64,000 nt of DNA, from contig OZ024742.1 in assembly GCA_964016885.1 (NCBI GenBank), positions 218,798,001 through 218,862,000 of the forward strand, given 5' to 3'. This DNA is from Eledone cirrhosa (taxonomy: Eukaryota). The notes beneath the pieces were generated by a model. The model worked only from the letters and a program-made list of their open reading frames with translations, was not told where the DNA came from and did not search any database. The position numbers and the translations under genes were made by a program. Below, piece by piece: positions 7,162 to 63,237 of the stretch (position 1 is the first letter of the stretch; every line of letters begins with the position of its first letter).

Positions 7162-7600
7162 CTTGGTGGGGTTGCCGGTTTAGTCGCCGACGACCCGACC
7201 ATGCGACAGGTTGTACTGGGTTACATGTTACCAGTAGCACTCAAGAGTGACCCGACATAGTTTACTTGGTGAGGAGAGTGATTTTGGACACTCTGCAGGA
7301 CAACAAACAAAACCTGACAAAGGGCGGAAGAACTCATAATATATATATATAGGAACACGTATGACCCCGACGGCAGAGCTCAAGCCGTTTCGAGTCCAGA
7401 ATTAGCCGTCGAAACGGCTTGAGCTCTGATGTCGGGGACATACTTGTTCCTATTACCCACTCTACTACCCTAAGCATTGAGTACTTTGGTGCGTTATGAT
7501 CCATCTGGTTCCTTGCCACATTTCCTTCGTTATATATATATATATATATAAGTATGTATGTATACGTACATACATATATGTGTACAGACGTACAGTAGCA

Positions 7601-7682
<82 letters not shown>

Positions 7683-7847
7683 CACATATGCATACAGGTA
7701 CACATACATATATGCACGCATCAGTTTAGCCGACGTTTATTATAACGCAGCTTTGTTCGCTTGTTTGTCAACAAATCGAACAGCCTGAATTTATGCCATA
7801 CGGTGTTAGGGCAACCACGTCACCTTTTTGTTCAACACTGACACAGG

Positions 7848-7892
7848 AACGATGTACTAGTTTCAAGCTTGTTAGCTATCATCAGCACCGTT
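7848..7892 (-). ncRNA. Minimal type I hammerhead ribozyme (inverted copy of 8190-8234)
   Basis: Reverse complement of the 8190-8234 motif. Confidence 0.85.
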
Positions 7893-8189
7893 TACCCATC
7901 TGCCAGATAGTTGAACGTTCGAAAGTATATACTTTCCTTATGAAAATTAACGGCTGCTACTGTACGTCTGTATACATATATGTATGTACGTATACATACA
8001 TACTTACATTTAAGTAAGTGCCATACTAAGAGTGAGAAATGAAATTTCGTTTTCATTTTTTTTTCAACTTGTCGTTTTCGTATGCCTGACCGATTTAACT
8101 CACTCAATATGCAAATTAGGCTGCTCAGCCGTTAACTTTCATAAGGAAAGTATATACTTTCGAACGTTCAACTATCTGGCAGATGGGTA

Positions 8190-8234
8190 AACGGTGCTGA
8201 TGATAGCTAACAAGCTTGAAACTAGTACATCGTT
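8190..8234 (+). ncRNA. Minimal type I hammerhead ribozyme
   Basis: AACGGTG-CTGATGA-tAGC taacaa GCTt-GAAA-CTAG-TA-CATCGTT: 7-bp stem I, palindromic stem III ACTAGT, GUA site. Confidence 0.88.
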
Positions 8235-8399
8235 CCTGTGTCAGTGTTGAACAAAAAGGTGACGTGGTTGCCTTAACACCGTATGGCATAAATTCAGGCT
8301 GTTCGATTTGTTGACAAACAAGCGAACAAAGCTGCGTTATAATAAACGTCGGCTAAACTGATGCGTGCATATATGTATGTGTACCTGTATGCATATGTT

Positions 8400-8451
<52 letters not shown>

Positions 8452-8687
8452 TGCTACTGTACGTCTGTATACATATATGTATGTACGTATACATACATAC
8501 TTACATTTAAGTAAGTGCCATACTAAGAGTGAGAAATGAAATTTCGTTTTCATTTTTTTTTCAACTTATATATATATATATATAGAAAGGATAAAAAGGA
8601 CGATTGATTATTCCTTCATTGCATTTATTGATAGGTGACGAGCGTTTCGCCACTGATCAGCTCAAGGTATATATTTATTTATATATA

Positions 8688-19567: not shown

Positions 19568-21303
19568 CTATAAAACCTCCTTGTACACAATGTTTTTCGT
19601 TTTTCGTTGTGGAACGAACGCGAAAGCATCACTGTTGCTGCCGACACGCGAGCAGCCAACGTAAAGCTGACCATGAGAGAAACATGGCTCCCCCAAATGT
19701 ATTCCCGCCACAGACAGTGTTTGACCCTGCGCTTTGTTAATTGACATAGCGAAACATGGCCTTACTGGGAACTGGGACCTCCGAAATGTGAAAGGTAGGT
19801 CTGCTCCTGATGGGAAAAGATGCATCCTAGGTATGAGCACAACGTTGCCTCGACCGCACCCTGTGATAATCGTGGCCTCAATCAGATTGGGATATAAGGA
19901 CTTAACGATCAAACGTGTGCCATTGCATTGTTTCGGGGGAACCAAATTTCTAATGAGCATTATAGGGGCACCAACTTTAAGTTTGAGAATGTGTGGGGGT
20001 AGTCCGGGGTGCTCAAAGGAATTGAGTACCTCTATTGGATAGTTGATGACGTCCTCTGGGTCAGGAGTTGTATCGATAGACTTATATACATAGCCATCCC
20101 CAGGAATGAGTTTTAGCATTTGATCATTAATATGGTGAACAGTTTTATTCCTCGGGGCCAGAATAGCCCTTTGGCCAATCCAATCTATATTCTGATAATT
20201 AGCTTGTAGATCTGGGAACACTGCATCTGTGAGATCAGAAGGCGTATTAACAATGGTACAAATGGAATCGCTGGCAATATTACCATTTTCATCCCCGGTT
20301 ATTTTGCCTTCGCCAAGTGCAAGGAGGGTGTGAGAAAATGCTGCTGATGCGATAACACCTCACATATGAGCACGCATGTTAGTGTGAAGTACAGAGTCTT
20401 CACCAGTGGCCACAATGTGGATGACTTAAGACACGCACTTACTGCATCAGCTCTAGTCCCCTTGGGAATAACGGGAAGTGTTTGCCGGAAGTCCCCTGAA
20501 AGAAGAAGTGTTATGCCTGCCATGGGAGCTGTAGAGTGTTTGATGTCTCTGAGAGATCTATCTAGTGCCTCAAGAGCACCTCTGTGGGCCATCGTGCATT
20601 CATCCCAAATGATAAGCTTGCATCGTCTGAAGACTTCTGCCTGATCGGAGCTGTTACTGATGTTGCAAGTTGGTGTCTCAGTCTTCGCTAAGTCAAGCGG
20701 GAGCTTGAAAGTGGAGTGAGCTGTCCTGCCACCTGGCAACAAAGGAGCCGCAATTCCAGATGATGCCACAGCTAGGGCAATGCCTTGTGTTCGCCTAATC
20801 TCAGTCAATATTAATTTGTTGACAAAAGTTTTCCCAGTGCCCCCAGGAGCGTCCAGGAAAAAAATCCCCCCAGCTTTGGCCCGGACTGAATTAACAACGG
20901 AGTTGTAAGCGAACTTCTGTTCAGGAAGTAACTTTGGCTCATTCTCGGCTATGTACTGTGCAAGCTCGTTAACATTAAAACATGTCTCACGCAGCAAATC
21001 TGAAGACAGAGTGTTTATGCGTTCCCGGTTTGTTGAAGGTAGGCCATATACCGCCAAGGCACTACCGCCCATATCAAGTACAGTATCTTCGATTTCAAGC
21101 AGCGCCCTGTTGTAAATGAGGTCACTGTACCCGACCTCCATTGATGGATGTAGCCATTGAGCGTGACGCAGGAAATCTTCAGACATATAATCTTTGTAGG
21201 TAAGCCATAAAGAGGCGGGATCAGCCAAGTCACACCATAGGAGTAGAATAGCGAAAAGCGATCTGATTTTTTTAGGAGATTTTAACGAAACACCCTCCGC
21301 CAT
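19568..21303 (-). pseudogene. Helitron Pif1-like SF1 helicase domain (two frames)
   Basis: FLDAPGGTGKT, IIWDECTM, GDFRQTLPV, QFPVRPCFAMSINKAQGQTL, HGQLYVGCSRV. Confidence 0.93.
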
Positions 21304-21315
21304 AGTGGCGCCCCA

Positions 21316-24296
21316 TTATGAATCGTCCTCCAAAAGACCACGCCGAAAGCAGGCTTCCAGGAAAGTATCACATAATCCACCGTCAACAGTTCTTATGTCT
21401 CGAAAGCTTTGTGGGCCAAAAACCTCATGGAGGTGAAGGCGCAGGTGAAAACACTCATGCTGGTTGGGAGGTACAGTGTACACTCTTCCTAGACAACTGT
21501 CAAACTTGACACCAGGATGTCCTTCAACATCCTGACCCGACTTCCTACGCACCCAATTGTTGTTTGACCACACGTAGTAGGACGGGACCTGAGGGTATAA
21601 AAGTGTTTTGGCAAATGTGTCAAGTTGGCAAAGCCTAAAGAAACCGGTCAAAGTTGTTTGTTTGGGATTTGCCGCCAATTGAGCAGCAGTCTGTTCAGTA
21701 AAGTAAGCTCGCTGGCTATTTTCCAAATGAACCGCTAGTTGTATGATGGCGGGGTGCCTTTGGTGAAGCGGAAACCCGAATATCCGCCAAAAAGCTTCAC
21801 CACTGCTTATGTAACGACTTGCCAAGTACTCCGACACCTCGTCCCTGCTATTGTCCTTTTGAAGGCCGAACATGGCAGCGTCAGAACCCTTGTTAACATA
21901 TTTACATATATACTTTATAGACTTTACTGAATGACAGAACTCCACATTTATGTGAGCGTTAAAAGTTTTCATCAGAAATGGACAGTACGGGACTACCCAC
22001 CTATTATCCACTTGATGACCCCGTAACGTCATAGTGAATCCACCATTGTCAGGGTGCCTTCGTCTGTACAGTGGGTATCCGTCGCGGCTTGTCTGGGTCT
22101 CCTCCACGAACCTCTTTGGGTATCGTTTAGTGCACACATGGTCTTTGTGGCATGAGGAGAACTTTTGAAAACCGGGACCACACGGACCGTGCACCATGTG
22201 TGCCTTCACAATGTCGTACAGCTGCCGGTCAACAGTTGGGTCCGGGATTTCTGCTGCGATGACGTCATCAAGAACTGTCGGGTCTATTTTGTTGACCAAC
22301 CAAAGCAAAATGTGCGCGTGTGGCAACCCTATTTTCTTCCACTCAACAGTATACATGTGGCACTTAACAGGACCAAAAACCTGCCCTTTTTTAAATTAAA
22401 TCAATGAGCTTAGCGAGCTTCTGCCTGAAAACCCTTGCAATAATATCATGGCGATGGCAGTACTGCTGCCCTGGGAGAAGTTCTCGCGTTACCTCAAGCC
22501 ACTTTGGGTTACATGTAAAGGTGATGAATAAATCGGGTCGCCCATAATGCCGAACGTAAGTCATAGCGTCTTGTGTTCGCTCGTGCATGTACCGTGGGCC
22601 CCCTGTATAGGTTGAGGGGAGAATGCACATCTTGCCGATGTTGCGGGCGTCAGTGTCATTCCTGATGCCGTCACGAAAATGTATTTAGGAGTCTGAGCGC
22701 AGCTGCTTCTGATTCAATTTGATGAAGCACAGTCTCTCCGACTCCATCTTTGCAGCCATGTCAACGGCAAACTGGTGAAACAGTTCCCGTGAGCTGTGCA
22801 GGGGGCTAAAATCATTATGCCTTGTCATGAAGCGGTATGAGTAGAAAGCCATACATGAAACAGTTTTAGATGTCGCAGCAGTGGGCTCGTTTGGTTTGTT
22901 TGAGGAATGCCGAAATGGTACCCGTCTTCTCCGTACGGAAAAAGAAGGGGATACTGCAGGGCGTCATATGAACGATGCGTCTCATTAATACGTTGAAGAC
23001 CACTGTCGCGGCTTTGAAGAACTATGTCTCGCTTATTGTGCTGTCCACCATGGAGAACTACGGCCACTTCATTGCACGAAGGAGCGTTATATCGGCGTGC
23101 GTGCTCCCCAGAAGGTCTTTTGTCAGCATCGATGACAATGGTGAAGTTTGGTGAAGGGGCTGTTTCCAAGGCGTATTTGAAACTACGAATGTAACTGTTG
23201 TGCTCATGAAGCATGTTTTGCAGACTGAGCAGCACGTCCCTGTCAAAATTGTCAGCGTCAGTGTTTGCAGGTGGTGGAATAACGCCGAAACGCACATCAA
23301 TTTGCGTATTGTAGTTTGAAATGAAGTAAATTTGAAGGAACGAAGGTTTGGAATTTTGTAGTGGCTGAGTGACCCAATAAGGTGGTACACCTGGCCCTGG
23401 ACCTTGAAAGTAGGCATCCAACCAGTTTCTCTGACAACGTTAGCCCCGAAAGAAGTCATCTGAAATGCACAATTGTACTTCCTGATGAGTTGAAGGAATT
23501 TTGATGACCTTGAGGTCGAACCAGTAAGTAATTCCTTCAAAGGGTCTGGCAGCTCCCGAAGAGGGGGGAAGGTGACCTTACCGTTTAAGCAGCACATTGC
23601 AGGTGGTTCCCCAGCCCACTTTTTAGCATTGCAGAATTGGCAATTGAAGCATATTTCCCCAATATTTATGTCGGCGCGCATCGAGTAATTGAAGTTGGGC
23701 TCATACTTGAAAGCCGGTAGATGCCAGTAAGGGCTGTGTGGACTCGTCAGACCGCGGGTAGCCTCGCGCCGTCGACTGTTCCGCTGGAATGTAGAACGTT
23801 GCTGGTCTGAGTCGTGGGTAGGTGTCGCATCAGTAGCAGAAGCGACTTTTGCAATGGTAATGAACCGGCCGTCTGCATCTTGAGAAGGCATGGAAGCAGT
23901 GAAAGCCGCCTTGTTCCTATGAAGGTGAGTGGTCGGTAGTTCGAAACGTTCCGAAAATCTTGAAGCAGCAGTAACCGCAGCGCTTTTAGCCAGTCGAGTG
24001 GCCCTTTGTTGTGGGCCCTCTGAAGCCCTTGAAGCAGCAGCAGCCTTTATAGCCATGCGATTCGACCTTGTTTCCGGACGCTCTGAAGCCCTGGAAGCAG
24101 CATCGTATGAAGTCTTTTTTGCTCGGCGTGCGTTGCGCTGTTGGAAAGTTTCAGCAGCTCGTGATTCCACTAAACGTAAGGCGCTCTGTGAAAGTCTGAA
24201 ATCCTTTTTGTCGGATGACTCGTTTGCGGTAATTGCCTTTTGCGCGACTGCTGCTGCCGTATGGCGGCCGAGGCGACTTCTCTTTTTCGGTGGCAT
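21316..24296 (-). pseudogene. Helitron N-terminal Zn-finger and HUH Rep domain (four fragments)
   Basis: CQFCNAKKW...CCLNGKV; FKVQGQVYH; YDALQYPLLFPYGEDG; PDLFITFTCNPKW (motif I); GLPHAHILLW (HUH); KYICKYVNKG (Y2). Confidence 0.93.
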
Positions 24297-27200
24297 TTTA
24301 TGTGAAAAATAAAGGGTGAAAGTTACTTAAAGATAGAAATTGTAATTAGAATGAAATGTGGAAAAATTTTGACCGTGGAAGGAAAAGAAACAAACATTTG
24401 GAGCTGAAAGAAATTGTTTAGGTAAGTATAGCGACAGAGTGTGTAAAGTGTATTGAAACGTGAGTTAAAAGAAAGAAAATGAAGTGAGATTTGTAAGAAA
24501 GGAAGTTGTTTACGTACATGTGGCAAATGGCAAATGTTTTAGTTGTTTAATAAAATATTTGTGTAAAGTGTATAGAAACGTAAATTGAAACAAAGAAAAT
24601 GAACTTACATTTTTAAGAAAAGAATTTGTTTACGTACATGTTGCAAATGGCAAATGTCTGTGCAGTTGTCAGAAATCTAACCAGGGTACATTTGTGGAAC
24701 TGATGTATTATAATGAATAGTCCATCTCGTTCAGGGTACATGAAGATTAACAACCGAAAATGAAAATAATTGTCGTTTGATTTTACGATTGAAAGAAAAT
24801 AATTGTCGCAAATTAGAATTTTTATTTGTTAATGAAGTGTGTATGTGTGGTTAGAAATCCGGCACGTGGTTAAATTGATTTAAAGTTTAATTATTCATTT
24901 GATGTGAGTGTGTGTTTGTATGTGTTTGCAAATAAATAAATCAGTTTGAAGACTCACATTTAGAATAAACGAAATTGTACGTTAATGTGGCTAATGTTTT
25001 TGTTGTTTAGTCTGTAAAGTGTATGAGTGAGAGAGTAAAACGGACAGTATCACCATCAACATGAACAATGTAAAATGAAAAGAATAGTTGTTTCAGCTTG
25101 GAAAGAGAAAGTAGCAGAAAGTATGAAGTTGTATAGATTTTGAAGGGTAATGGAAAGAGTTTAGCAGTTTAAATGAGAGAGGTAAATCGTAAAATATTGA
25201 GTTTTATCGATTTATTGCGTAATTGTGGGTGAAATTGAAAAAAATATATGTGCCATGACCCAATAAAAGCTATTTCGAATACTGAATTGTAAATTTCAAT
25301 TGAACAAATTCTATATCGTAGATTTCTATAACAAAGAAATGTGACCATACACTGAGCTTTATAGATTATGATATATATATCTTTCTTGGAAGAATGAAAG
25401 GTAACATTGATTCTAGTGGAATTAGAATTGACAACCAATTGGAATGAAATGAAACACCGCAAGAAATGTTATTCATATCCCCTCTTACTGTTTCGGTCAA
25501 CTGTATTTTTCACAACCTTTTGCGGAAAGGGATTCTCAAAATTTATAAGAGAAACTCAGTGGACCACCAAATATAAATATTCTTTTAATTGCATTATGCT
25601 TGCCGTCAATTATCACAACTTTATTTCTCGTTGCTCCAGTTTACTCAGCTAGAAATGAGTTGCGACGTCACTGGTGCTAAGCTGTATCAGCCTTTGCCTT
25701 TCCCTTGGACAACATCGGTGGCGTGGAGAGTGGAAAGTGGTATGCATAGGCGCCTGCTGGTCTTCCACAGACAATCTAGCCCGGACTTGTGCCTCGAAGG
25801 GGAACTTCGTGACCGAAGGCGGTCCACATGAACCTCGTTGCGCATCACTGTCCTGGTTAAAGCGTCATCATGTCACTTTTAAAAGAATATAAAGTTGAAT
25901 TTATATAGTTTTTAAAACTGGTATGACAACTAGTACCTCATATTAACGACCCCTTTACTTCAAGGGGGAGGGTTTATTGTTGGCCCAATAAGCATATTAT
26001 TTAAGGGTATTTATTTTATGGGTCCTGGCTAGTGGGGGGAATGAAAGTCAATTTTATTCGGAGCTACTTTATATGGTGGATTCTCCGTCGGTCTCCACGA
26101 TGATCATTCAGTTGTTCAATTAACTGAATTCCTACTCATGAAATTAAGGTATACTTTGTCGAGTATTCCACAGACACTTGTACCCTTAATGCAATATATA
26201 TTTTCCGGACAAATCAGCTTGACACAATGTAACAAGGTTAGACTTTGAGTTACATATACACTTCAAAGAGAAGAATCGAACCCAGTTCTGGATTGGTAAT
26301 TCATTTATCAACCTCGAAAGGATGAAAGGCAAAGTTGACCGCGGCGAAATCTCTCTCTCTCTCTCAGCGAATTCCCCGTCTTGCTAATTCGTATAACTTA
26401 CGGATATTACGAAAAGTTACAGTGGTGGGTCTAAGATTTGAACTTCTAGGGACGAGCTTTAATTATCACATGTCATTTAATCCAATGATATATTGTTTCT
26501 GCTAGCTTGCTTCCCTCACTTCATAAAATATAAACGGTTTAATCTATTTAATTAAACCACTAAAAGTGTACGAGAGAATTCATAATACTTATATTAATAT
26601 TGCAGTTGTAACGAATTAATGAGAAAGATAGGGAATATGTTATATTAATGATAATAAAGAAGTGAAGCAATGAGACGGTACATTTTTATTTTTATTTTCT
26701 TCACAGTAATTATACATTACATTTCACGTTTCTTTTTTGAGTCTCTTCTATAAATTAACGGTAAATTTCTTCCGAAATTACCTAAAGGCTACATGTATCG
26801 CAAAGTAATTAGAATTATGCCTACTCTACATTTCCACTGAGCCGCTTATCAAATTAATATAAATCTATGAAAACATATAAACAAATTCTGGAACATTTGG
26901 AAATTTGTAATTGATATTTCTGTATACGAAAACAAAAAATTCTGGAACATTTTGAAATGTGTAATTGATATGTCTCTATATTAAAACATTTAAGAAAATT
27001 CCAAAACATTTTGAAATTTGATCTACCTTAAGTCTAGAATATTTTAGGTAAAATCAAATCTTAGTCTATATCAGAAATACTGAAATCTTATGTGTGTGTG
27101 TGTGTGTGGTGGGAGGGAAGCTCGCTATATTCTCCTTTTCTTTACATCTACCTGCGCCTCATCTGCTTCTTGCTACTTTACAGAATTGCGTAGGAAAACG

Positions 27201-38895: not shown

Positions 38896-39539
38896 GTTTC
38901 GAAAATGTAAGAGAAACACAAACATAAGGACAATTTCCGCTCTTCGGATGTCTGCTGTGGGTCGCTGATGTTTCGACGCATTAAAGACAGTACATCTCAC
39001 CACAGTGCGTAAAATAACTACAAGGAATAGTCATTAGGGAAGAAAACAACAACAAAAAAACAAAACGAGACAGTAGTACATGTAAGCTGCAGTAACCAAT
39101 GGGAGAGAGGGAGAAGTTAAAAAGGAGACCGAGCGTAAGCCCTGAATCCGTATTAAAAGCACGAGAGAAAGAGAGAGAAGAGAAAAAGGTCTGATCATAG
39201 CGAGAAAAGGCGCAAAGAGGGATAGACGAAGGAAAACTGAAGTTAAAGGGGAGAGGGGGAAGTGGTAAGGGAGCAGAAAGGAGATAGATGGTCACTGCAA
39301 CTTACATGTACTACTGTCTCGTGTTTCCTCCTCTCTATTGGTACGTTTTTCTTCTATTTATTTTCTTTTTCTGTCGTTCTCTTCGCTATTGTCTCTGATT
39401 TTTGTTCTTCCCTAATAATTATTCCTCGTAGTTAGTAACCCACTGTAGTGAGATGTACTGTCTTTAATGCGTCGAAACATCAGCGACCCACAGCAGACAG
39501 CTGAAGAGCCGGAATTTTCCTTATGTTTGTGTTTCTCAT

Positions 39540-39775
39540 GTGGTCCCACGTGCTGGCCACCCCACGGCCCCGGCGGACAGTATGGAGAAGGCGTTTCCCC
39601 GGAGGATGGTAAGGGAGATGCACTGGAAAAGCCATTCCACCTCGCGAGGCTCACACCTGCAGCTGGCTAGCTCAGCGCCTATGATGGTAAGTAGGGAGGT
39701 AGCCCTAGGGACAAGGACACCAGAAGTCTCCACTGCTAGGGTCACGACCGCAAACCTGTCGGAGAGAGACTGTTA
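39540..39775 (-). mobile_element. CRE-like retrotransposon 3' fragment
   Basis: LAVETSGVLVP...PREVEWLFQCISLTILRGNAFSILSA. Confidence 0.7.
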
Positions 39776-39943
39776 TTGAAGAGCGACCAATGTTATCGAA
39801 GGCTTTCTTATAACCAATAAAACCTAAACAAAATGGTTGCCGATATTCTTCATGTTCCTGAATAACGTGGTTCACGAACTATAAATTGTCTGTTCTCTTG
39901 ATTGGTTGAATTCAGAGAGAATACTGGTGCAAATTTGAAGTTA

Positions 39944-39995
<52 letters not shown>

Positions 39996-40005
39996 TATCA
40001 TTGAA

Positions 40006-40069
<64 letters not shown>

Positions 40070-40078
<9 letters not shown>

Positions 40079-41099
40079 TAAACAAATAATGAATAAACAA
40101 TTCCTTATATTAAACAAAAAAAGTTCATTATTTAACGATCGTTTCTAGGATATATATGTGTTAGAATTGGTATGCATATTCAACAGATCTATGTACAAAA
40201 TTATACAAAATTATACAAATTATCAAGATTAAATATACATACCAAACACATATATACGCCGTCTTCAGAAATAATGAAGTATATTTATTGATAATAACAA
40301 CAATTCAAAATTTCAGTTCAAAATTGACCAATGAAAACACAAAGGGTTAAATGCAGTTTGGTGTGTGTATATACATGTAAAACCCTTACACATATTTTAC
40401 AAAAATGTATGTATAATTTGTATACGCATACTAAAAAGATGGATGCAAATACAAAATTTCAAGGTTAATGTCTCTGTAAGCTTACTTTGCGCAGATAAGA
40501 TGCGCATTGATACTTATGAAATCAAGTATATAAATATATTTTTTCATACTCACACATATCAGTACAATCACACATACACGCGCGTATATGCATAAATATA
40601 CACATAACCACGAACATACAAACACACACACACCCCCACTCACATTTATATATGTGGATATAAAATCATAAGCACATGGATATTAATTCACTCACATAAA
40701 ACACTGGTACACACATTTTTAGATCAAGACACAGAAATTAGGTGGGAGGGGGGGAAGGGTCAGTATTCAATTGTCTGAGCAGACTGCCTAATATAAATGT
40801 ATCTATAAATTAAGAAAAATAAAAAAATAAAACAATAAAATATAATAAATATAATATAATATACATACACATACAGATATATACACATACATACATGTAC
40901 ACACACATAGAAATATTTACGCATACACACATACACACATACATATATAGTCATACACACACATACACCTACACGAACATACACATACACATATATAAAG
41001 ATATATATATATACACACACACACGCACGCAACACATACACACATACACATATATATAAAAAAAATAAATAATAAAGATATATACCCATATATATACAT

Positions 41100-41138
<39 letters not shown>

Positions 41139-41213
41139 CATACACATACATCTAAATATACATACGCATACACACACACATACATGTACATACATGTACA
41201 TATACGCACATCG

Positions 41214-41252
<39 letters not shown>

Positions 41253-41523
41253 TAGACATATAGATACATACACACACAACTTACATACACACATATATAT
41301 ATACATGTATATTCATACATAGAATTAGATATATAATCATACATACATATGTACTTACTTATACTCATATATACAAATACATACGCATCCATATATGCGT
41401 ATATACATAAAAAACCGCTACAACCTCACATAAACTCAGACATACAAATAAAAATAATAATAAAAAGGCATATGTATATACATACACACACGCATTAATA
41501 GAGATATACATATACACATACAT

Positions 41524-41562
<39 letters not shown>

Positions 41563-41698
41563 TATATATATATATGTATATACACACACATACACTCATA
41601 CATATATATAAATATATATATATACACATAGATATCCACACACTTATACCACCATAAATACACATACAAACACCCACATATACATATATATACACACG

Positions 41699-41730
<32 letters not shown>

Positions 41731-41849
41731 TAAAAAACAGACATGCACATATATATATATTTTTTTACACTTATATTTATACATATTATATACACATACA
41801 CAACCTCACTTATACACACATACACATAAGTTATATTATAATAATGAAG

Positions 41850-41889
<40 letters not shown>

Positions 41890-41952
41890 TATATACACAT
41901 ACACAACCTCACTTATACACACATACACATAAGTTATATTATAATAATGAAG

Positions 41953-41991
<39 letters not shown>

Positions 41992-42097
41992 TATATATAT
42001 ATATACATACATACATACACACACATACATACATATAAACATATACATACATAAATACACACGTACGAATATAGACATATATTCACACATAGACACC

Positions 42098-42147
<50 letters not shown>

Positions 42148-43293
42148 TACACACATACATATACACAGACACATATACACATTCACATATATATATATAT
42201 ATGTGTGTGTGTGTACACACACATATATACACACACACACACAAATACACATAAACACATACATATGCATACATGCACACACACACACATATATCACATA
42301 GATACGAAGATAAACATATAAATAGAGAGACATACATATATATACAACACACATACACACACATACATACACGCGCATATACATATACATATATTTATAC
42401 ATATATATATTCCTATATATACATACATACACATATATACACATATATACACATACATACACATATACGTATACACATTCACATACACATACATATATAA
42501 TGCATATATACACATATATACATACATATACACACTCATATATACACACGCAATCTTACATTCATATTTGCATGCGCATATATATATTTTTATATTTAGA
42601 TATAAATACCCAAACCTATATAGACACCTACCTACATATATATTCATACATAGACGCTTACAATACAGATGATAATAGTATGGGGGAAAGGGGGGGTTTG
42701 GAGAAGGGGATCAAAGTAAATATATGTTTCAAGAAACATAAAATATTTTCCGTATCTTTATCCAATGTATGTTCTTATATATTTTCAGTGTTAGGAAACA
42801 TAACCAACAAGAACTAAGGCAAAATCTATGCATCTCAAAATAAATAAGTATACCATTAATCATATGTTAACTAAACCAAAAATAGTCAACATATTGACTT
42901 CTAAGGTGTAAATTAGTTAGGTTTATAATATTTGAAGCAGAATTTTGAAGTTAAACAGTAGTAGATTATTAATTACAGTATAATTAAATTAAAGTTAATA
43001 ACGTTATGGTATCAATATTAGGAAATGAATTTAGTAATAGGGAAAAAAAACACAAATAAAAATAAAATAAAGTATTACATCGGTAGTAGAATATAAATTA
43101 TATGTTAACTAAATTAAAAATTATATATTTATTTCAATAGTATATGTTAGTTAGGTATACAATACATAAAGTAGATATTGTATTTCATCAATAGCATAAT
43201 ATAATTATATGCAAATAGAAATCAAAATTAATACGCATACATATACATAAACATACACATACACATACATATACATATATATACACACACATA

Positions 43294-43325
<32 letters not shown>

Positions 43326-44273
43326 CACATATATATATACACATATATACATACATACACATATACATACACAACCACACATACACATACACATATACAT
43401 ATACATATCTTTTTCAAAAAATTGCATAGAATATATTAACTAGGTATATATCCAAAACACATCCCATTCTATGATTACATGACATTCTGCAATTCGTCTG
43501 TATAAGGATACTAATTTTAAGCAAATTAAAATTAAAATTTTAGGTTGATTAAAACTAAAACCAAATAATAAATATATTTCTAAAATGTATATTAATTAGG
43601 TCTATAATACTAAAAATTATTTCTCTGTCATTGGATACACGATATTATTTTGTTATATTTTATCTGTAAAAGAATTATAATAAAAGGTTTAAATAAGTTA
43701 AAATTAATCTATAAATTAAATTACTAAGTATATATTAGTAATATTTAAAGGTTTTTCACAATTTATGATTACATAATATTTTATATTCTCATCTGTAATA
43801 AAATTAAATTTATAGGTTAAATTAATTTCTAAAATAATGTTATTAATTAGGTTTATAATATTTAAATGTTTTTTTTAATTTATGATTACACGATATAATT
43901 AATTCCTGTCGTTTATTTAATAAGATATCCTTAGACTTCATTATTTCAAATAGTTCTTGGGAACATAATCTACATTCATTTCTATTATTTTGATAAGGGG
44001 TGGCTCTTTTGAGCACACTCCAGGTCAAATCATATTTTATATTCTTATTTTTATAACTATTGATTTTTTCTGCTAGAGATGTTGTATTAGCCAGTGCGGC
44101 ATTTTTAAAACTATGCTTGTGGGTATTAAACCTTGTCTTAAAATTGTTAGAGGTAGCTCCTATATATGAGCAAATAGAATCTTTAGTTTTAACATTACAT
44201 TTATAGACTATGTTGTTAACGAGACAATTCCCTTTTAATGGGCAGTTTGCTTTGTTTCTACAGTTACATCCTT
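40070..44273 (-). repeat. Inverted copy of the element's 3' half (= reverse complement of 46634-50844)
   Basis: Junctions read directly; mirror-image ORFs in the track are identical (e.g. 43843..44028 equals the ORF C-terminus; 42097..42549 equals 48358..48810). Confidence 0.97.
40124..40278 (-). ncRNA. Hammerhead ribozyme, inverted copy of 50636-50790
   Basis: Within the inverted arm. Confidence 0.7.
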
Positions 44274-44276
44274 ACA

Positions 44277-44470
44277 GAACTTTTTTTGTTTAATATAAGG
44301 AATTGTTTATTCATTATTTGTTTAATATTTTATCTTGACTCTGTATACCGTTTATCTTTCACCGAAAGTGGTTTTTCATTACATCTCTTCTTTCCATGAT
44401 ATCCGGAATACATTGAGTTCTTCATACGGATTGGACACTACCGTAAACTCTTGGTAGATTTATCTACATA
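44277..44470 (+). repeat. 5' pseudo-LTR (194 bp)
   Basis: GAACTTTTTTTG...TATCTACATA matches 50788-50981. Confidence 0.95.
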
Positions 44471-44622
44471 ATTTTGCTCCTATTTTCACGGAAATATTCG
44501 TATTTTTGTACTGTATGTGTGTATTAATTTTATATTTATGTATAAACATATATATATGTATGATTTTGTAAACCCATATACATTTAGTTGAGCTCTTTCA
44601 ATTGTCCATCATCCATATCACA

Positions 44623-47064
44623 ATGGAAAAACAATATTTAGGAACCTCCTTAAAAAACATACCAATACCTTCTAAGGACGACTTCTTACTCCTTATGATT
44701 CAGAAAACTAATAATTTTATCAGAAGGGTTAGATGGAGAGCCTACCACTTCGATAGAAAATCTAAACAAGCAGATCGGAAATATATGTATGATTTCAATA
44801 CTTACAAGAATCCACCACACAATTTTTTACTTGAAGACTTCGAGAAAGACCTTTTTAATTTAATTAAACACCTCAAATTTAAAAAGTATAAATCCGTCTT
44901 TCAAAAGGACCTTGACTCTACCCTATTGGACCTAAAAAAGTCTAAAAAAATCCATGTCCACTCGGACAAAACTGGTAACTTGTATCATATGGATATTGAA
45001 CATTATAATGAGTTCATATATAAAGAACTCAGAAAAAATTATAAAAAATCTAATAATGTGTCACTCACCAACATCAACAACAAAACACACAACATAGTAA
45101 AAAAACTAAACATTGAAGATAGAACTGAACCTTTGGCATTGAAAAGACCACACTTCAACCTGAAAGATCACAAATCTAACTTTAACTCAAATCCTTCTAT
45201 TAGACTTATATGTCCCTCCAAATCAGATATTGGAATAATTAGCAAAAAAATTTTAGATAGAGTCATCCCACAAATAAGAAAACACGTTATTTTACCACTC
45301 TGGGAAAACACCTCCCAGGTAATTAACTGGTTTAAAAATATTAGGTGTAAATCTTCTGCTTCTTTCCTACAATTTGATATAGATAATTACTATTCTTCTA
45401 TATCACCTATACTCCTGAACAAAGCATTGATATTTGCTAAAAATAGATCTAACTTAACTTTGGATGACATTAACATTATTACACATGCTAGACTAACACT
45501 TATTGAATTTCAGAATGAATACTGGACCAGAAACACATACAGTAATCTTTTTGATATTACTATGGGTTCAAGCGATTCCGCCCAAATTACTGATCTTGTG
45601 GGCCTCTTTCTCCTTTTCAACATAAATGCCTCTTTTCCCCACCTCAAAGGTGGTTTATATCGTGATGACTGTCTTCTTCTTTCTAACAACCTTAGCCTTT
45701 CAGAAATCGAAAAAAACAAAAAACATATTAGAACTTTCCTTAAAGACTATTATAATCTTAATATTACTTTTGAAAAAACAAGTAAAGTAGTAAATTTCCT
45801 AGATATAACTTTAGATCTAGCTACGGGTATCTACCAACCTTACCATAAACCTAACCAAAACTTACATTACATACACTCACAATCTAATCACCCTAAATCT
45901 ATCCTTAAAAACCTTGCATATAATATATCACTTAGAATTTCTAACCTTTCTTCTAACCAAGATGTATTTGATAAAAATGCGACCTTCTATAACGAAGCTC
46001 TAGATAGAAGTGGCCACAAAAATAGATTAGAGTATATACCTTCTACTAAAAATACTGAAAGCATACAACATAATATTACCAACAAACACCAAATGAAAAC
46101 TACACACCTAAATGCCACCCACACTATACCCCAAAATACTAAATCTTCTAATATAAAGTATAGTAACTCTCAAAAAACTACTCATCATACAACTATAATA
46201 AATATTAATAATAAAACTCCTAATAAAAAAGATAAAACACCTAAATCTACAAATATAACTAAAAATAGTTGTGGTGAGATCATTAACATTAATCCTCCTA
46301 GTAAAAATCACGATACAACCTATAAAAATAATAAAAATAATAAACAACATAGAAACCGTAATAGACGGGTTACTTGGTATAATGCTCCTTTTAATTTACA
46401 AGTTAAGGATAATATTGCTAAAAAATTTTTTTATATCCTTGAGAAAAACTTCCCGCCAAACCACAAATACCATCAAATCTTAAATAGGTCTACAGTTAAA
46501 TTCTCATACTCTACAACAAATAACATAAAACAAAATATAAGTGCATATAATGCATATAAATGTAAGAAAACCATAAGTATACCACCAGTACATCAAATTA
46601 ACCATAATATCTCCTCAAATACAGAATTAACGAAAGGATGTAACTGTAGAAACAAAGCAAACTGCCCATTAAAAGGGAATTGTCTCGTTAACAACATAGT
46701 CTATAAATGTAATGTTAAAACTAAAGATTCTATTTGCTCATATATAGGAGCTACCTCTAACAATTTTAAGACAAGGTTTAATACCCACAAGCATAGTTTT
46801 AAAAATGCCGCACTGGCTAATACAACATCTCTAGCAGAAAAAATCAATAGTTATAAAAATAAGAATATAAAATATGATTTGACCTGGAGTGTGCTCAAAA
46901 GAGCCACCCCTTATCAAAATAATAGAAATGAATGTAGATTATGTTCCCAAGAACTATTTGAAATAATGAAGTCTAAGGATATCTTATTAAATAAACGACA
47001 GGAATTAATTATATCGTGTAATCATAAATTAAAAAAAACATTTAAATATTATAAACCTAATTAA
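44623..47064 (+). CDS. Penelope-like reverse transcriptase + GIY-YIG endonuclease (Naiad-type), intact, ~813 aa
   Basis: SLKNIPIP N-terminus; FLQFDIDNYYSSI, ITMGSSDSAQI, GLYRDD, VNFLDITLDL RT motifs; CNCRNKANCPLKGNC Zn linker; IVYKC...YIGAT...FKTRFNTHKHSF nuclease; CRLC...LLNKRQELIISCNH end; first ATG at 44623. Confidence 0.95.
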   Translation: MEKQYLGTSLKNIPIPSKDDFLLLMIQKTNNFIRRVRWRAYHFDRKSKQADRKYMYDFNTYKNPPHNFLLEDFEKDLFNLIKHLKFKKYKSVFQKDLDSTLLDLKKSKKIHVHSDKTGNLYHMDIEHYNEFIYKELRKNYKKSNNVSLTNINNKTHNIVKKLNIEDRTEPLALKRPHFNLKDHKSNFNSNPSIRLICPSKSDIGIISKKILDRVIPQIRKHVILPLWENTSQVINWFKNIRCKSSASFLQFDIDNYYSSISPILLNKALIFAKNRSNLTLDDINIITHARLTLIEFQNEYWTRNTYSNLFDITMGSSDSAQITDLVGLFLLFNINASFPHLKGGLYRDDCLLLSNNLSLSEIEKNKKHIRTFLKDYYNLNITFEKTSKVVNFLDITLDLATGIYQPYHKPNQNLHYIHSQSNHPKSILKNLAYNISLRISNLSSNQDVFDKNATFYNEALDRSGHKNRLEYIPSTKNTESIQHNITNKHQMKTTHLNATHTIPQNTKSSNIKYSNSQKTTHHTTIININNKTPNKKDKTPKSTNITKNSCGEIININPPSKNHDTTYKNNKNNKQHRNRNRRVTWYNAPFNLQVKDNIAKKFFYILEKNFPPNHKYHQILNRSTVKFSYSTTNNIKQNISAYNAYKCKKTISIPPVHQINHNISSNTELTKGCNCRNKANCPLKGNCLVNNIVYKCNVKTKDSICSYIGATSNNFKTRFNTHKHSFKNAALANTTSLAEKINSYKNKNIKYDLTWSVLKRATPYQNNRNECRLCSQELFEIMKSKDILLNKRQELIISCNHKLKKTFKYYKPN

Positions 47065-47581
47065 TAACATTATTTTAGAAATTAATTTAACCTATAAATT
47101 TAATTTTATTACAGATGAGAATATAAAATATTATGTAATCATAAATTGTGAAAAACCTTTAAATATTACTAATATATACTTAGTAATTTAATTTATAGAT
47201 TAATTTTAACTTATTTAAACCTTTTATTATAATTCTTTTACAGATAAAATATAACAAAATAATATCGTGTATCCAATGACAGAGAAATAATTTTTAGTAT
47301 TATAGACCTAATTAATATACATTTTAGAAATATATTTATTATTTGGTTTTAGTTTTAATCAACCTAAAATTTTAATTTTAATTTGCTTAAAATTAGTATC
47401 CTTATACAGACGAATTGCAGAATGTCATGTAATCATAGAATGGGATGTGTTTTGGATATATACCTAGTTAATATATTCTATGCAATTTTTTGAAAAAGAT
47501 ATGTATATGTATATGTGTATGTGTATGTGTGGTTGTGTATGTATATGTGTATGTATGTATATATGTGTATATATATATGTG

Positions 47582-47613
<32 letters not shown>

Positions 47614-48759
47614 TATGTGTGTGTATATATATGTATATGTATGTGTATGTGTATGTTTATGTATATGTATGCGTATTAATTTTGATTTCTATTTGCATAT
47701 AATTATATTATGCTATTGATGAAATACAATATCTGCTTTATGTATTGTATACCTAACTAACATATACTATTGAAATAAATATATAATTTTTAATTTAGTT
47801 AACATATAATTTATATTCTACTACCGATGTAATACTTTATTTTATTTTTATTTGTGTTTTTTTTCCCTATTACTAAATTCATTTCCTAATATTGATACCA
47901 TAACGTTATTAACTTTAATTTAATTATACTGTAATTAATAATCTACTACTGTTTAACTTCAAAATTCTGCTTCAAATATTATAAACCTAACTAATTTACA
48001 CCTTAGAAGTCAATATGTTGACTATTTTTGGTTTAGTTAACATATGATTAATGGTATACTTATTTATTTTGAGATGCATAGATTTTGCCTTAGTTCTTGT
48101 TGGTTATGTTTCCTAACACTGAAAATATATAAGAACATACATTGGATAAAGATACGGAAAATATTTTATGTTTCTTGAAACATATATTTACTTTGATCCC
48201 CTTCTCCAAACCCCCCCTTTCCCCCATACTATTATCATCTGTATTGTAAGCGTCTATGTATGAATATATATGTAGGTAGGTGTCTATATAGGTTTGGGTA
48301 TTTATATCTAAATATAAAAATATATATATGCGCATGCAAATATGAATGTAAGATTGCGTGTGTATATATGAGTGTGTATATGTATGTATATATGTGTATA
48401 TATGCATTATATATGTATGTGTATGTGAATGTGTATACGTATATGTGTATGTATGTGTATATATGTGTATATATGTGTATGTATGTATATATAGGAATAT
48501 ATATATGTATAAATATATGTATATGTATATGCGCGTGTATGTATGTGTGTGTATGTGTGTTGTATATATATGTATGTCTCTCTATTTATATGTTTATCTT
48601 CGTATCTATGTGATATATGTGTGTGTGTGTGCATGTATGCATATGTATGTGTTTATGTGTATTTGTGTGTGTGTGTGTATATATGTGTGTGTACACACAC
48701 ACACATATATATATATATATGTGAATGTGTATATGTGTCTGTGTATATGTATGTGTGTA

Positions 48760-48809
<50 letters not shown>

Positions 48810-48915
48810 GGTGTCTATGTGTGAATATATGTCTATATTCGTACGTGTGTATTTATGTATGTATATGTTTATATGTATGTATGTGTGTGTATGTATGTAT
48901 GTATATATATATATA

Positions 48916-48954
<39 letters not shown>

Positions 48955-49017
48955 CTTCATTATTATAATATAACTTATGTGTATGTGTGTATAAGTGAGG
49001 TTGTGTATGTGTATATA

Positions 49018-49057
<40 letters not shown>

Positions 49058-49176
49058 CTTCATTATTATAATATAACTTATGTGTATGTGTGTATAAGTG
49101 AGGTTGTGTATGTGTATATAATATGTATAAATATAAGTGTAAAAAAATATATATATATGTGCATGTCTGTTTTTTA

Positions 49177-49208
<32 letters not shown>

Positions 49209-49344
49209 CGTGTGTATATATATGTATATGTGGGTGTTTGTATGTGTATTTATGGTGGTATAAGTGTGTGGATATCTATGTGTATATATATATATTTATA
49301 TATATGTATGAGTGTATGTGTGTGTATATACATATATATATATA

Positions 49345-49383
<39 letters not shown>

Positions 49384-49654
49384 ATGTATGTGTATATGTA
49401 TATCTCTATTAATGCGTGTGTGTATGTATATACATATGCCTTTTTATTATTATTTTTATTTGTATGTCTGAGTTTATGTGAGGTTGTAGCGGTTTTTTAT
49501 GTATATACGCATATATGGATGCGTATGTATTTGTATATATGAGTATAAGTAAGTACATATGTATGTATGATTATATATCTAATTCTATGTATGAATATAC
49601 ATGTATATATATATGTGTGTATGTAAGTTGTGTGTGTATGTATCTATATGTCTA

Positions 49655-49699
<45 letters not shown>

Positions 49700-49774
49700 C
49701 GATGTGCGTATATGTACATGTATGTACATGTATGTGTGTGTGTATGCGTATGTATATTTAGATGTATGTGTATG

Positions 49775-49813
<39 letters not shown>

Positions 49814-50635
49814 ATGTATATATATGGGTATATATCTTTATTATTTATTTTTTTTATATATATGTGTATGTGTGTATGTGTTGCGTGCGTGTGTGTGTGT
49901 ATATATATATATCTTTATATATGTGTATGTGTATGTTCGTGTAGGTGTATGTGTGTGTATGACTATATATGTATGTGTGTATGTGTGTATGCGTAAATAT
50001 TTCTATGTGTGTGTACATGTATGTATGTGTATATATCTGTATGTGTATGTATATTATATTATATTTATTATATTTTATTGTTTTATTTTTTTATTTTTCT
50101 TAATTTATAGATACATTTATATTAGGCAGTCTGCTCAGACAATTGAATACTGACCCTTCCCCCCCCTCCCACCTAATTTCTGTGTCTTGATCTAAAAATG
50201 TGTGTACCAGTGTTTTATGTGAGTGAATTAATATCCATGTGCTTATGATTTTATATCCACATATATAAATGTGAGTGGGGGTGTGTGTGTGTTTGTATGT
50301 TCGTGGTTATGTGTATATTTATGCATATACGCGCGTGTATGTGTGATTGTACTGATATGTGTGAGTATGAAAAAATATATTTATATACTTGATTTCATAA
50401 GTATCAATGCGCATCTTATCTGCGCAAAGTAAGCTTACAGAGACATTAACCTTGAAATTTTGTATTTGCATCCATCTTTTTAGTATGCGTATACAAATTA
50501 TACATACATTTTTGTAAAATATGTGTAAGGGTTTTACATGTATATACACACACCAAACTGCATTTAACCCTTTGTGTTTTCATTGGTCAATTTTGAACTG
50601 AAATTTTGAATTGTTGTTATTATCAATAAATATAC

Positions 50636-50790
50636 TTCATTATTTCTGAAGACGGCGTATATATGTGTTTGGTATGTATATTTAATCTTGATAATTTGTA
50701 TAATTTTGTATAATTTTGTACATAGATCTGTTGAATATGCATACCAATTCTAACACATATATATCCTAGAAACGATCGTTAAATAATGAA
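50636..50790 (+). ncRNA. Hammerhead ribozyme of the Penelope-like element, ~115-nt stem II
   Basis: TTCATTATTT-CTGAAGA-...TATATATGTGTT...AACACATATATA...-GAAA-CGATCG-TT-AAATAATGAA; perfect 10-bp stem I, palindromic stem III, predicted cut after 50780; base of stem II is mismatched. Confidence 0.75.
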
Positions 50791-50975
50791 CTTTTTTTGT
50801 TTAATATAAGGAATTGTTTATTCATTATTTGTTTAATATTTTATCTTGACTCTGTATACCGTTTATCTTTCACCGAAAGTGGTTTTTCATTACATCTCTT
50901 CTTTCCATGATATCCGGAATACATTGAGTTCTTCATACGGATTGGACACTACCGTAAACTCTTGGTAGATTTATC

Positions 50976-50981
<6 letters not shown>
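50788..50981 (+). repeat. 3' pseudo-LTR (194 bp)
   Basis: Direct repeat of 44277-44470, runs into (TA)n. Confidence 0.95.
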
Positions 50982-51015
<34 letters not shown>

Positions 51016-51023
<8 letters not shown>

Positions 51024-51421
51024 TAACAGATTAAGGTTTAAGCAAAGAATCGCTGCTTTCACCCTTAACGGGATCTTCTGAAACTAACAAAGTCAATCTG
51101 TAAACACAGAACTGGATATTTCAAAACACGTTGCAACCGGAGGAAGACAGGAAGACGATACTTTGGTTCGTGGAAACGTTCACCAAAGTATCGTCTTCCT
51201 GTCTTCCTCCGGTTGCAACGTTTTTTGAAATATCCACTTCTGCGTTTACAGATTGACTTTGTTAGTTTCAGAAGATCCCGTTAAGGGTGAAAGCAGCGAT
51301 TCTTTGCTTAAACTTTAATCTGTTATTTTAATAAATATTTGCTCAACAGTTCTTATATATTTGATATATATTTATCCTTATCGAGCCCTCTTTGGATTTT
51401 AGTCTTTAAATTTATTATTAT

Positions 51422-51484
<63 letters not shown>

Positions 51485-51549
51485 TAACAGATTAAAGTTT
51501 AAGCAAAGAATCGCTGCTTTCACCCTTAACGGGATTTTCTGAAACTAAT
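51016..51549. mobile_element. Fold-back mini-element with variant HHR
   Basis: ~150-bp arms 51016-51168 / 51182-51331, third partial copy 51478-51549; AGTTT-CAGAAGA-tCCC gttaa GGGt-GAAA-GCA...TGC-TT-AAACT at 51264-51314. Confidence 0.7.
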
Positions 51550-51550
51550 G

Positions 51551-51616
<66 letters not shown>

Positions 51617-51624
51617 ACACATAT

Positions 51625-51680
<56 letters not shown>

Positions 51681-51685
<5 letters not shown>

Positions 51686-52517
51686 GGTTGATCGCGAATA
51701 GATGGCTGTCGTTTATTTATCTACTATTTCTTCATAGGTGCCTTTTAATCTTATAGCCTGGTTTAATTGATTCTTTGTGTGGTTGATTTTGATAATTGGG
51801 AGAGGAAATGGTGTATATATATTATCAAATGATTCTATGGACATACTTTATAGTTTATTGCTCTGATTATTTAATTTATTAATTCATCATTGAGCCACAT
51901 CGTGAATGGTTGCCAAAACATATATATCTGTGACTTTGTCTAGTTTGTGTATATGTAAATCTTTATATTTGATAATCTCCCATAAGGTTGAGATGCAATT
52001 TAGGCAATATTGGGCTGCGTTTTCTAGCAACCAGCCCACTCGCCGTAAGGCACCAATCACATTCTTTCTGACTTGACCACTGCCACGTCATAGTTCTTAG
52101 CCATTTTGAATTCATTTCTGGAGGGGATCATTTATGAAAAATCTTTGTCCAAGTGAGTTTGTTTCCTGATGAGTTCGAAGCTCGAGAATTTATCCTTGAT
52201 AGGATATTTCCGAAAGTGAACGAAACCCTAAAGGGTAGAAACGTAATCCTGGTATGTGTATGTGCATTTTTTCTTCTAACTTTAATTTTATACCTATAGA
52301 CGGTATATTTAATCGATTTCCACGTGCTATTTAAATGTTAGGTAAATATTCTATGGCGGTTGATCGCGAATAGATGGCTGTCGTTTATTTATCTACTATT
52401 TCTTCATAATCTTATAGCCTGGTTTAATTGTTTTTTTTTGTGTGGTTGATTATGCTAATTGGGAGAGGAAATGGTGTATATATATTATCAAATGATCCTA
52501 TGGACATACTTTATAGT
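51681..52517 (+). mobile_element. HHR mini-element, ~672-bp unit with ~170-bp terminal direct repeat
   Basis: 51681-51855 repeated at 52353-52517; (TA)n flanks; diverged relative at ~56495-56790 ends at the same position. Confidence 0.82.
52161..52242 (+). ncRNA. Canonical hammerhead ribozyme
   Basis: GTTTC-CTGATGA-GTTC...GAAC-GAAA-CCCT aa AGGG-TA-GAAAC; all three stems pair, GUA site. Confidence 0.88.
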
Positions 52518-56781: not shown

Positions 56782-56830
<49 letters not shown>

Positions 56831-56943
56831 TATTTGGCAATACACCGTATGTTTAATTAAAAACATTTTGAAAACCTTGCGCTATCATTTTAAAGTAGTG
56901 ACTATGTCACTTACTTCTTTTTGGGGCAAAGGAAGGGAGAGAA

Positions 56944-56984
56944 GCTGACAGATTCTGTTTCACACTGTTGGTGATCCTCAGAGC
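56944..56984 (-). ncRNA. Hammerhead ribozyme (inverted copy)
   Basis: GCT-CTGAGGA-tCAC caaca GTGt-GAAA-CAGaatCTG-TC-AGC. Confidence 0.75.
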
Positions 56985-57296
56985 AACGTACTCCCGGCCT
57001 CTGCCGAAAATTATAGAGGCTGGATTCTTATAGAATTCCAGTAATAATCAGGAACTGATTATATAGAGCGATTGGCGATCCAGCAAAAATTAAAAATTAG
57101 GATTGGTGCTCTGAAATAGTATATTGCCAAATATACTATACATACATTCATGTTTACATCGCTATTTCAGAGCACCAATCCTAATTTTTAATTTTTGCTG
57201 GACCGGCAATCGCTCTGTATAATCAGTTCCTGATTATTACTGGAATTCTATAAGAATCCAGCTTCTATAATTTTCGGCAGCGGTGGGGAGTACGTT

Positions 57297-57337
57297 GCTC
57301 TGAGGAACACCAACAGTGTGAAACAGAATCTGTCAGC
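57297..57337 (+). ncRNA. Minimal hammerhead ribozyme
   Basis: GCT-CTGAGGA-ACAC caaca GTGT-GAAA-CAGaatCTG-TC-AGC, GUC site; stem I only 3 bp. Confidence 0.8.
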
Positions 57338-57500
57338 TTATCTCCCTTCCTTTGCCCCAAAAAGAAGTAAGTGACATAGTCACTACTTTAAAATGATAGC
57401 GCAAGGTCTTCAAAATATTTTAAATTAAACATATGGTATATTGCCAAATATACTATACATACATTCATGTATACATCGCTATTTCAGAGCACCAATCCTA

Positions 57501-60143: not shown

Positions 60144-60298
60144 ATCAGACCTAGCTGTCGAAACGGCCGGAGCTCAGCGGTCGGGGTCCTGACTCTTTTC
60201 CTATTACTCACTCTACTACCCTAAGGATCGAGTACTATGGTGCGTTAAGGTCCACCTGGTTCCTTACCACACTTCCTTTGTTATATATATAAACATAC

Positions 60299-63233: not shown

Positions 63234-63237
<4 letters not shown>
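62547..63237 (+). mobile_element. HHR mini-element family A, copy 2 (inverted fragment + ~429-bp unit with ~130-bp terminal direct repeat)
   Basis: 62547-62692 inverted; 62686-62820 repeated at 63115-63237; homologous to 7549-8567. Confidence 0.85.
62998..63040 (+). ncRNA. Minimal type I hammerhead ribozyme (family A)
   Basis: ATGTTG-CTGACGA-tAGC taataa GCTt-GAAA-CTAG-TA-CAGCGT. Confidence 0.85.

Follow-up and report, generated by a model that had tools for sequence, protein, structure and literature searches.

Family A, a repeat of Eledone cirrhosa, carries the footprint of a Penelope-like element (PLE): its copies show a fixed 3′ end with an optional tail, 5′ truncation, an inverted arm and a (TA)n target. 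Retrozymes are the right family for this repeat and, judged by its genomic sequence, we add family A to the metazoan non-LTR retrozymes as a new member whose genomic copies give evidence of mobilisation by PLEs. The copies were very likely made by PLE-type twin priming on a template of several units. The whole reading towards which we incline, with moderate confidence, is that the reverse transcriptase (RT)-endonuclease of a PLE, probably of the Hydra clade, uses a single RNA, probably a circle made by the ribozyme, as the template on either side of the DNA cut.

The window, which is the whole stretch of 64,000 nt of contig OZ024742.1 that was analysed, holds two copies of family A, both flanked by (TA)n on each side. 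They consist of the following parts, where S and L are the two sites at which the 3′ ends lie.

7549 to 7956, minus strand: inverted, 5′-truncated arm of copy 1; its 3′ end (left) is at site S and is joined to (TA)n at 7531-7548
7855 to 7885, minus strand: hammerhead core of the inverted arm of copy 1
7955 to about 8568, plus strand: forward arm of copy 1, covering the 497-nt unit 1.23 times; its 3′ end lies at site L, then (TA)n
8166 to 8251, plus strand: type I hammerhead of the forward arm of copy 1, core 8197-8227; predicted cut after 8227
8452 to 8567, plus strand: terminal redundancy of copy 1, equal to 7955-8070
8504 to 8568, plus strand: the 'tail', which separates site S (after CATACTTA, 8503) from site L and contains a hairpin
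about 62551 to 62685, minus strand: short inverted arm of copy 2, without a hammerhead; its 3′ end lies at S, and it turns over within a local palindrome
62686 to 63237, plus strand: forward arm of copy 2, covering the 429-nt unit 1.29 times; its 3′ end lies at S
63004 to 63034, plus strand: hammerhead core of copy 2; pair 3 of stem I is U-G where copy 1 has G-U

The starts, ends and periods given in the original prediction were reproduced. In copy 1 the unit starts with TGCTACTGTACG at 7955 (again at 8452) and ends with TTCAACTT at 8567, with a period of 497; in copy 2, ACAAACACACCGAG stands at 62686 and 63115, the end CATACTTATA is at 63237 and the period is 429. The hammerhead lies mid-unit, once per unit, and is read through in both copies, as had been described. 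The second, inverted and 5′-truncated arm of each copy had been missed. The inverted arm of copy 1 runs into the forward arm with a 2-nt overlap (7955-7956), and the redundancy of this copy extends over 116 nt at 100% identity. Three of the four outer ends of the two copies lie at one place, CATACTTA followed by (TA)n. Copies 1 and 2, members of different subfamilies, share about 77-81% identity. Their direct repeats are partial tandems, and LTR architecture is absent. No frame of at least 120 aa overlaps them except microsatellite read-outs, and they are thus non-coding. The octamer ATGCAAAT (8109-8116), about 80 nt upstream of the hammerhead core, is kept in six of eight aligned monomers; it may be linked with the snRNA-type promoter of newt satellite 2, for which our literature search turned up no paper.

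Each unit appears to carry a type I hammerhead, a predicted self-cutting motif recognised by its core and by stems I and II, which show covariation. In the fold, stem I is long and bulged, stem II has 4 bp and a short loop, and stem III is reduced to a single pair with a palindromic CTAG as its cap. Pairs 1-6 of stem I are standard in 121-131 of 135 distinct contexts. Pair 3 is UG in 72 contexts, GU in 40, AU in 11, CG in 3 and UA in 2, and the five standard types cover 129 of the 135. Double-sided changes were seen at 6 of 118 consensus pairs in eight monomers. The predicted stem I would also pair the two ends of a monomer running from cut to cut. Rfam gave no matches in the window at gathering scores; at E ≤ 1 it gave a weak HH9 match (18.5 bits against a gathering score of 52) amid microsatellite-driven miRNA matches. 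As a monomer, an axolotl motif with a similar one-pair stem III cleaved by 6% in an hour (PMC7229834), and one of nine Xenopus elements cleaved (preprint 10.64898/2026.07.22.740005). Circular folding of family A gave z-scores of −7 to −10; these are inflated by the internal TA run and were set aside for that reason. A different hammerhead family is present in the window at 56805-57476 as an inverted pair between (TA)n runs, with cores at 56981 (minus) and 57300 (plus), and was also found at locus L182. A third hammerhead-like family occurs at L185, L208, L231 and L232, and at the first two of these it forms inverted pairs near Hydra-like frames.

The 31-nt pattern of the hammerhead core of family A has 24,001 exact matches in the 3.0-Gb genome and its reversed control has none, so the feature is not due to chance. 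A generic repeat finder was also run on the window, and its output was dominated by microsatellites. We studied 107 loci, 55 of them taken in order of position (first 22.6 Mb of contig 1) and 52 chosen by similarity to copies 1 and 2; 130 loci had been fetched, of which 23 overlapping or redundant ones were left out, and 12 array loci and eight exception loci were added later. The units are mostly 420-510 nt long with a GC content of 36-38%, form at least three subfamilies, and occur in up to nine units per arm. In the position-ordered sample, 78 of 97 arms hold no more than one hammerhead, which indicates heavy 5′ truncation. Among contigs of four out of six sequencing runs, which by nature cannot show RNA ends, the unit was present in three runs (three organisms), and one run gave none. 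In alignment A1, columns 55-61/282-288 and 293-299/362-368 are long-range helices that flank the S-L tail and show double-sided changes between subfamilies; they are a candidate binding site for the mobilising protein.

The 3′ ends of the arms lie at site S or, about 60 nt further on, at site L, and (TA)n follows. Counted by exact patterns over the genome, S ends joined to (TA)n number 5,473 against 19,826 read-throughs, and L ends 8,345 against 13,667. Automatic calling of ends by BLAST alone or by motif alone was noisy owing to low-complexity extension and to the palindromic tail hairpin; the ends were therefore curated by eye and checked by exact patterns. With one insertion counted per locus, a head-to-head second arm was found in 63 of the 107 loci. 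The outer ends of these two-armed insertions lie at S or L in 110 of 126 cases, and 15 insertions have at least one end elsewhere. Where both ends could be called, one was S and the other L in 47 of 48 insertions; L+L did not occur and S+S occurred once (p=1.7e-13), and this sole exception is copy 2 in the window. The check by exact patterns, which covers 74 S and 100 L places listed for the first 56.7 Mb of contig 1 and partly the same loci as the curated set, gave S+L for 20 of 20 head-to-head pairs within 3 kb and for 24 of 25 within 7 kb. From this near-absolute rule, a short end paired with a long one, we would expect two priming events to be coordinated on a single template.

These ends change how the relation between the copies is to be understood. 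The two copies had been described as circular permutations of each other; their 5′ ends indeed differ, but their 3′ ends are fixed at S or L, and the two 3′ ends then quoted are the only two common ends of family A. Free circular permutation is accordingly rejected. The original prediction had set fixed termini across copies against its own circular interpretation; such termini do occur at the 3′ end, whereas the 5′ ends vary. Fixed 3′ ends are still compatible with a circle, because they mark internal initiation sites.

The 5′ ends behave differently. We placed 173 of them approximately, in a sample that favours hammerhead-bearing loci, and they are scattered over the whole unit with none at +1 to +4 of the cut. 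Variation of this kind is what ordinary PLE 5′ truncation produces. In a count free of the bias towards hammerhead-bearing loci, 26,922 places exactly matched the 25 nt following the cut, and 22,705 of them kept the preceding 10 nt exactly as well. Ten of the first 100 listed places lack the exact 10 nt; eight of these are point or indel variants that read through, and the other two break 3 and 9 nt upstream of the cut. Seamless read-through of the cleavage site means that the template was longer than one unit and, together with the exceptions inspected, that run-off on a cut linear monomer was not the usual course. Thus the earlier suggestion that cDNA was copied more than once around a circular or multimeric RNA stands with respect to a template longer than the unit, but permutation itself is not a sign of a circle. 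Terminal redundancy does not need a ribozyme-made circle, because autonomous PLEs in which no hammerhead was detected form tandems as well.

Such PLEs are found in the window itself, as one intact element and as a small terminal-repeat insertion directly to the left of copy 1.

40070 to 50981, plus strand: autonomous PLE of Hydra-clade type, family 1; frame of 830 codons at 44572-47064, 137-nt tail at one end
40070 to 44273: inverted arm of this element (4.2 kb)
44277 to 44470: its terminal repeat, equal to 50788-50981
7349 to 7536, plus strand: two-armed insertion of the terminal repeat of Hydra-like PLE family 3, in whose (TA)n end copy 1 sits

The Hydra clade is characterised by RWK-like, DKT, CxCX5C, CxxC and CxH motifs, a C-terminal endonuclease and a (TA)n target (PMC8557442), and the motifs RWR, DKT, CNCRNKANC, CRLC and CNH of family 1 match this set. 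Its protein had no Pfam match. Hammerheads have been called universal in Hydra PLEs (PMC8557442). A pattern scan found no hammerhead core in 39000-52000 or in the whole tandem unit of family 1, and for this reason we call it Hydra-like. It has at least 144 matches in the genome at 99-100% identity, some in tandems of 3-5 units. The genome contains three Hydra-like families with open frames; families 1 and 3 had no hammerhead core over the whole unit in the pattern scan, yet they occur as tandems of 3-5 units. The two Hydra-like families other than family 1 have left pieces of their terminal repeats at 7349-7536, 60146-60287 and 51011-51548; the insertions at 7349-7536 and 51011-51427 have two arms, with a short end and a long end. 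Ends of these two families lie near 20 and 26 of the 130 family A loci (overlapping loci included), which suggests that these elements nest in each other's (TA)n. Family 1 and family A have the same architecture. Among the 144, 71 and 64 candidates scored out of 38,000-87,000, we found no sequence shared by family A with the three Hydra-like families. The long end at L218 (Hydra-like family 3) resembles site L of family A over about 15 nt by eye, which is below BLAST significance. A fragmented Helitron-like element with Pfam matches to Pif1 2B and STPR lies on the minus strand of the window at 19568-24326.

We suggest the following course for the mobilisation of family A. Tandem units would be transcribed, cut by the hammerhead and ligated into circles of one unit, as inferred from known retrozymes. 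A PLE protein would then cut both strands within (TA)n, the target that is observed. Reverse transcription may then start within the RNA from each DNA end, at S from one end and at L from the other, in line with the observed pairing. Both cDNAs would be extended upstream through the cleavage site, over as many as about nine units, and stop at variable points, as seen in the read-through and in the 5′ ends. Finally, repair may link the two cDNAs by their 5′ ends, or attach a single arm to the flank, which would leave the junctions we observe. We give a circular template about an even chance or slightly better, considering the read-through, the uniform long arms, the conserved ribozyme and the known retrozyme circles, which occur in coral, mussel and axolotl (PMC7229834). 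Against this course, no autonomous partner with shared sequence came to light among the candidates scored for the three Hydra-like families, families without hammerheads also form tandems, and the periodicities of two units (L116) and three units (L161) are not produced by a monomer circle alone. The poor cleavage of the axolotl and Xenopus motifs, the dispensable hammerhead of Poseidon in vitro, tandem duplication at the DNA level (L170) and the S+S ends of copy 2 tell against it as well.

The arms and the multi-unit arrays bear on whether a single template served both arms. The arms overlap sufficiently for comparison in 46 two-armed insertions; their median difference is 2.2% from each other and 6.4% from other loci. 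In only 15 of these insertions was no sequence closer than the partner arm, which ranked within the top tenth in 27. All seven units in both arms of L129 share three variants that are absent from the nearest neighbours, and such variants are also shared by the four units of L167 (three variants), L097 (one) and L016 (one). Young arrays are nearly uniform, with no differences in 435 nt at L097, 404 nt at L095 and 436 nt at L166, and 0-3 per 400-450 nt at L129 and L091. Over 45 multi-unit loci there were 24 shared and 278 private variants. The shared variants fit expansion from a single unit, and unsampled subfamilies could give the same, as 105 loci of many thousands were compared. L116 alternates two units that are 3.5-4% apart and L161 has a three-unit periodicity; circles of two or three units were not accepted from these loci, because duplication in place explains both equally well. 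Tandem duplication at the DNA level does happen, since L170 is a 2.2-kb tandem duplication that spans a copy of family A and its flanks. Two copies 1.3 Mb apart (L063 and L064) have identical flanks. There was no excess of A-to-G editing scars in 210 units of 105 loci (A>G against T>C: 14 and 17 at single-unit loci, 4 and 2 among shared variants, 22 and 17 among private ones), and editing is therefore uninformative as a test of circle against multimer.

An alternative that we judge to be rather unlikely, although it is the strongest of those considered, is that the templates of PLE twin priming were multimeric linear RNAs, transcribed from genomic tandems and left uncut. The arrays would then be renewed by duplication at the DNA level or by whatever builds the tandems of autonomous PLEs, and the hammerhead would be a passenger or act in another step. 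Read-through and S+L pairing fit this equally well. It is also favoured by the full-length tandems of the Hydra families without hammerheads, by the existence of ABAB and ABCABC arrays, by the inclusion of flanking DNA in the tandem of L170, and by the Poseidon PLE, for which uncut RNA was the main substrate and the hammerhead was dispensable in vitro (PMC11167929). However, truncation as heavy as that in the position-ordered sample would shorten the arrays in each generation. Uniform multi-unit arrays in several subfamilies would need repeated bottlenecks of one unit followed by re-expansion, and compensatory pairs have been kept in the hammerhead. Circular RNA as the template remains the reading we favour.

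It is improbable that the template was a linear monomer cut by the hammerhead, on which the enzyme, having reached the 5′ end, jumped to a 3′ end, either of that monomer or of a different one, while stem I held the two ends together. The predicted pairing of the monomer ends by stem I would suit such jumps, and jumps between different RNAs could yield mixed arrays, for example at L116 and L119. On the other hand, the 5′ ends do not pile up at the cut in our sample, which is biased to loci with hammerheads, and just two of the ten inspected exceptions break within 10 nt of it. Template jumps by R2 leave junction scars, and none were seen in family A. An origin at the DNA level, as a satellite, MITE or Helitron-like element with inverted arms and redundancies from recombination in (TA)n, is very hard to credit: the microsatellite on both flanks, the lack of a discernible target duplication and the occurrence of DNA-level duplications speak for it, but it is already largely refuted by the S+L pairing, and the fixed-3′/variable-5′ polarity, the conservation of the ribozyme fold and the occurrence of this architecture in elements of the window that encode an RT also argue against it. 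A plant LTR retrozyme is ruled out by the type I topology and by (TA)n on both flanks, in place of a type III hammerhead in LTRs with a 4-bp duplication.

The metazoan non-LTR retrozymes have tandem units of about 150-450 bp (families to 972) with GC below 50% (PMC7229834; preprint 10.64898/2026.07.22.740005). Family A resembles them in its non-coding tandems, units of a few hundred bases and one type I hammerhead in each (PMC7229834; preprint 10.64898/2026.07.22.740005), as well as in its thousands of copies, its range from monomers to multimers and its compact predicted fold. It differs in that its ends are mapped, with two fixed 3′ sites, an inverted arm, (TA)n and S+L pairing. Circles and self-cleavage have been shown for some of these retrozymes (PMC7229834; preprint 10.64898/2026.07.22.740005) and are predictions for family A. 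Plant LTR retrozymes are likewise non-autonomous and hammerhead-bearing, and circular RNA belongs to them (PMC7229834; preprint 10.64898/2026.07.22.740005), but their type III hammerhead, LTRs, primer site, purine tract and 4-bp duplications were not seen in family A.

The closest likeness in architecture is to PLEs. Their insertions have been described with a tail often at only one end, an inverted 5′-truncated arm, 5′ truncation and (TA)n targets, so the one-sided tail is already in print for PLEs (PMC8557442). With the Hydra clade (PMC8557442) and the Poseidon element PAc (PMC11167929), family A has in common the partial tandem, the inverted 5′-truncated arm, the tail at one end, two internal initiation sites and a type I hammerhead upstream; insertion into (TA)n is as in Hydra. 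In vitro, a Poseidon PLE cut and extended both strands, and two internal initiation sites bound its tail (PMC11167929). Unlike these PLEs, family A has no reading frame, its tail is about 60 nt rather than 30-40, and its hammerhead has a long stem I where that of PLEs is of the minimal form. Chlamys elements such as MRC1 are also non-autonomous PLE derivatives with pseudo-LTRs and multicopy head-to-tail insertions (PMC8557442); in contrast to family A they occur in green algae, most are without hammerheads, and their 3′ sequence is common with a known partner (PMC8557442). In our literature search there was no report of S+L pairing or of such a family in cephalopods, and older Penelope papers may anticipate the pairing. 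A term search of the main text of the Octopus vulgaris repeat annotation (PMC13282606) gave no occurrence of 'hammerhead', 'ribozyme' or 'retrozyme'.

On the basis of co-occurrence and sequence trees, retrozymes have been proposed to depend on PLEs (PMC7229834; preprint 10.64898/2026.07.22.740005). How animal retrozymes enter genomes is a stated open question, and so is the origin of the tandem, inverted and tailed insertions of Penelope (PMC7229834; PMC8557442; preprint 10.64898/2026.07.22.740005). Family A puts the full Penelope footprint on a retrozyme. Because the genome has many identical intact PLE frames, circular and linear templates could be compared in vitro with an RNA of 0.4-0.5 kb. 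We tentatively raise the possibility that twin priming by Penelope-type enzymes is coordinated on one ribozyme-ligated circle, on which two subunits would use two different fixed sites and never the same one, each travelling around this circle from its own end of the broken DNA. If this is true, one mechanism would cover the pseudo-LTR, the inverted arm and the one-sided tail of PLEs as well as the concatemers of retrozymes.
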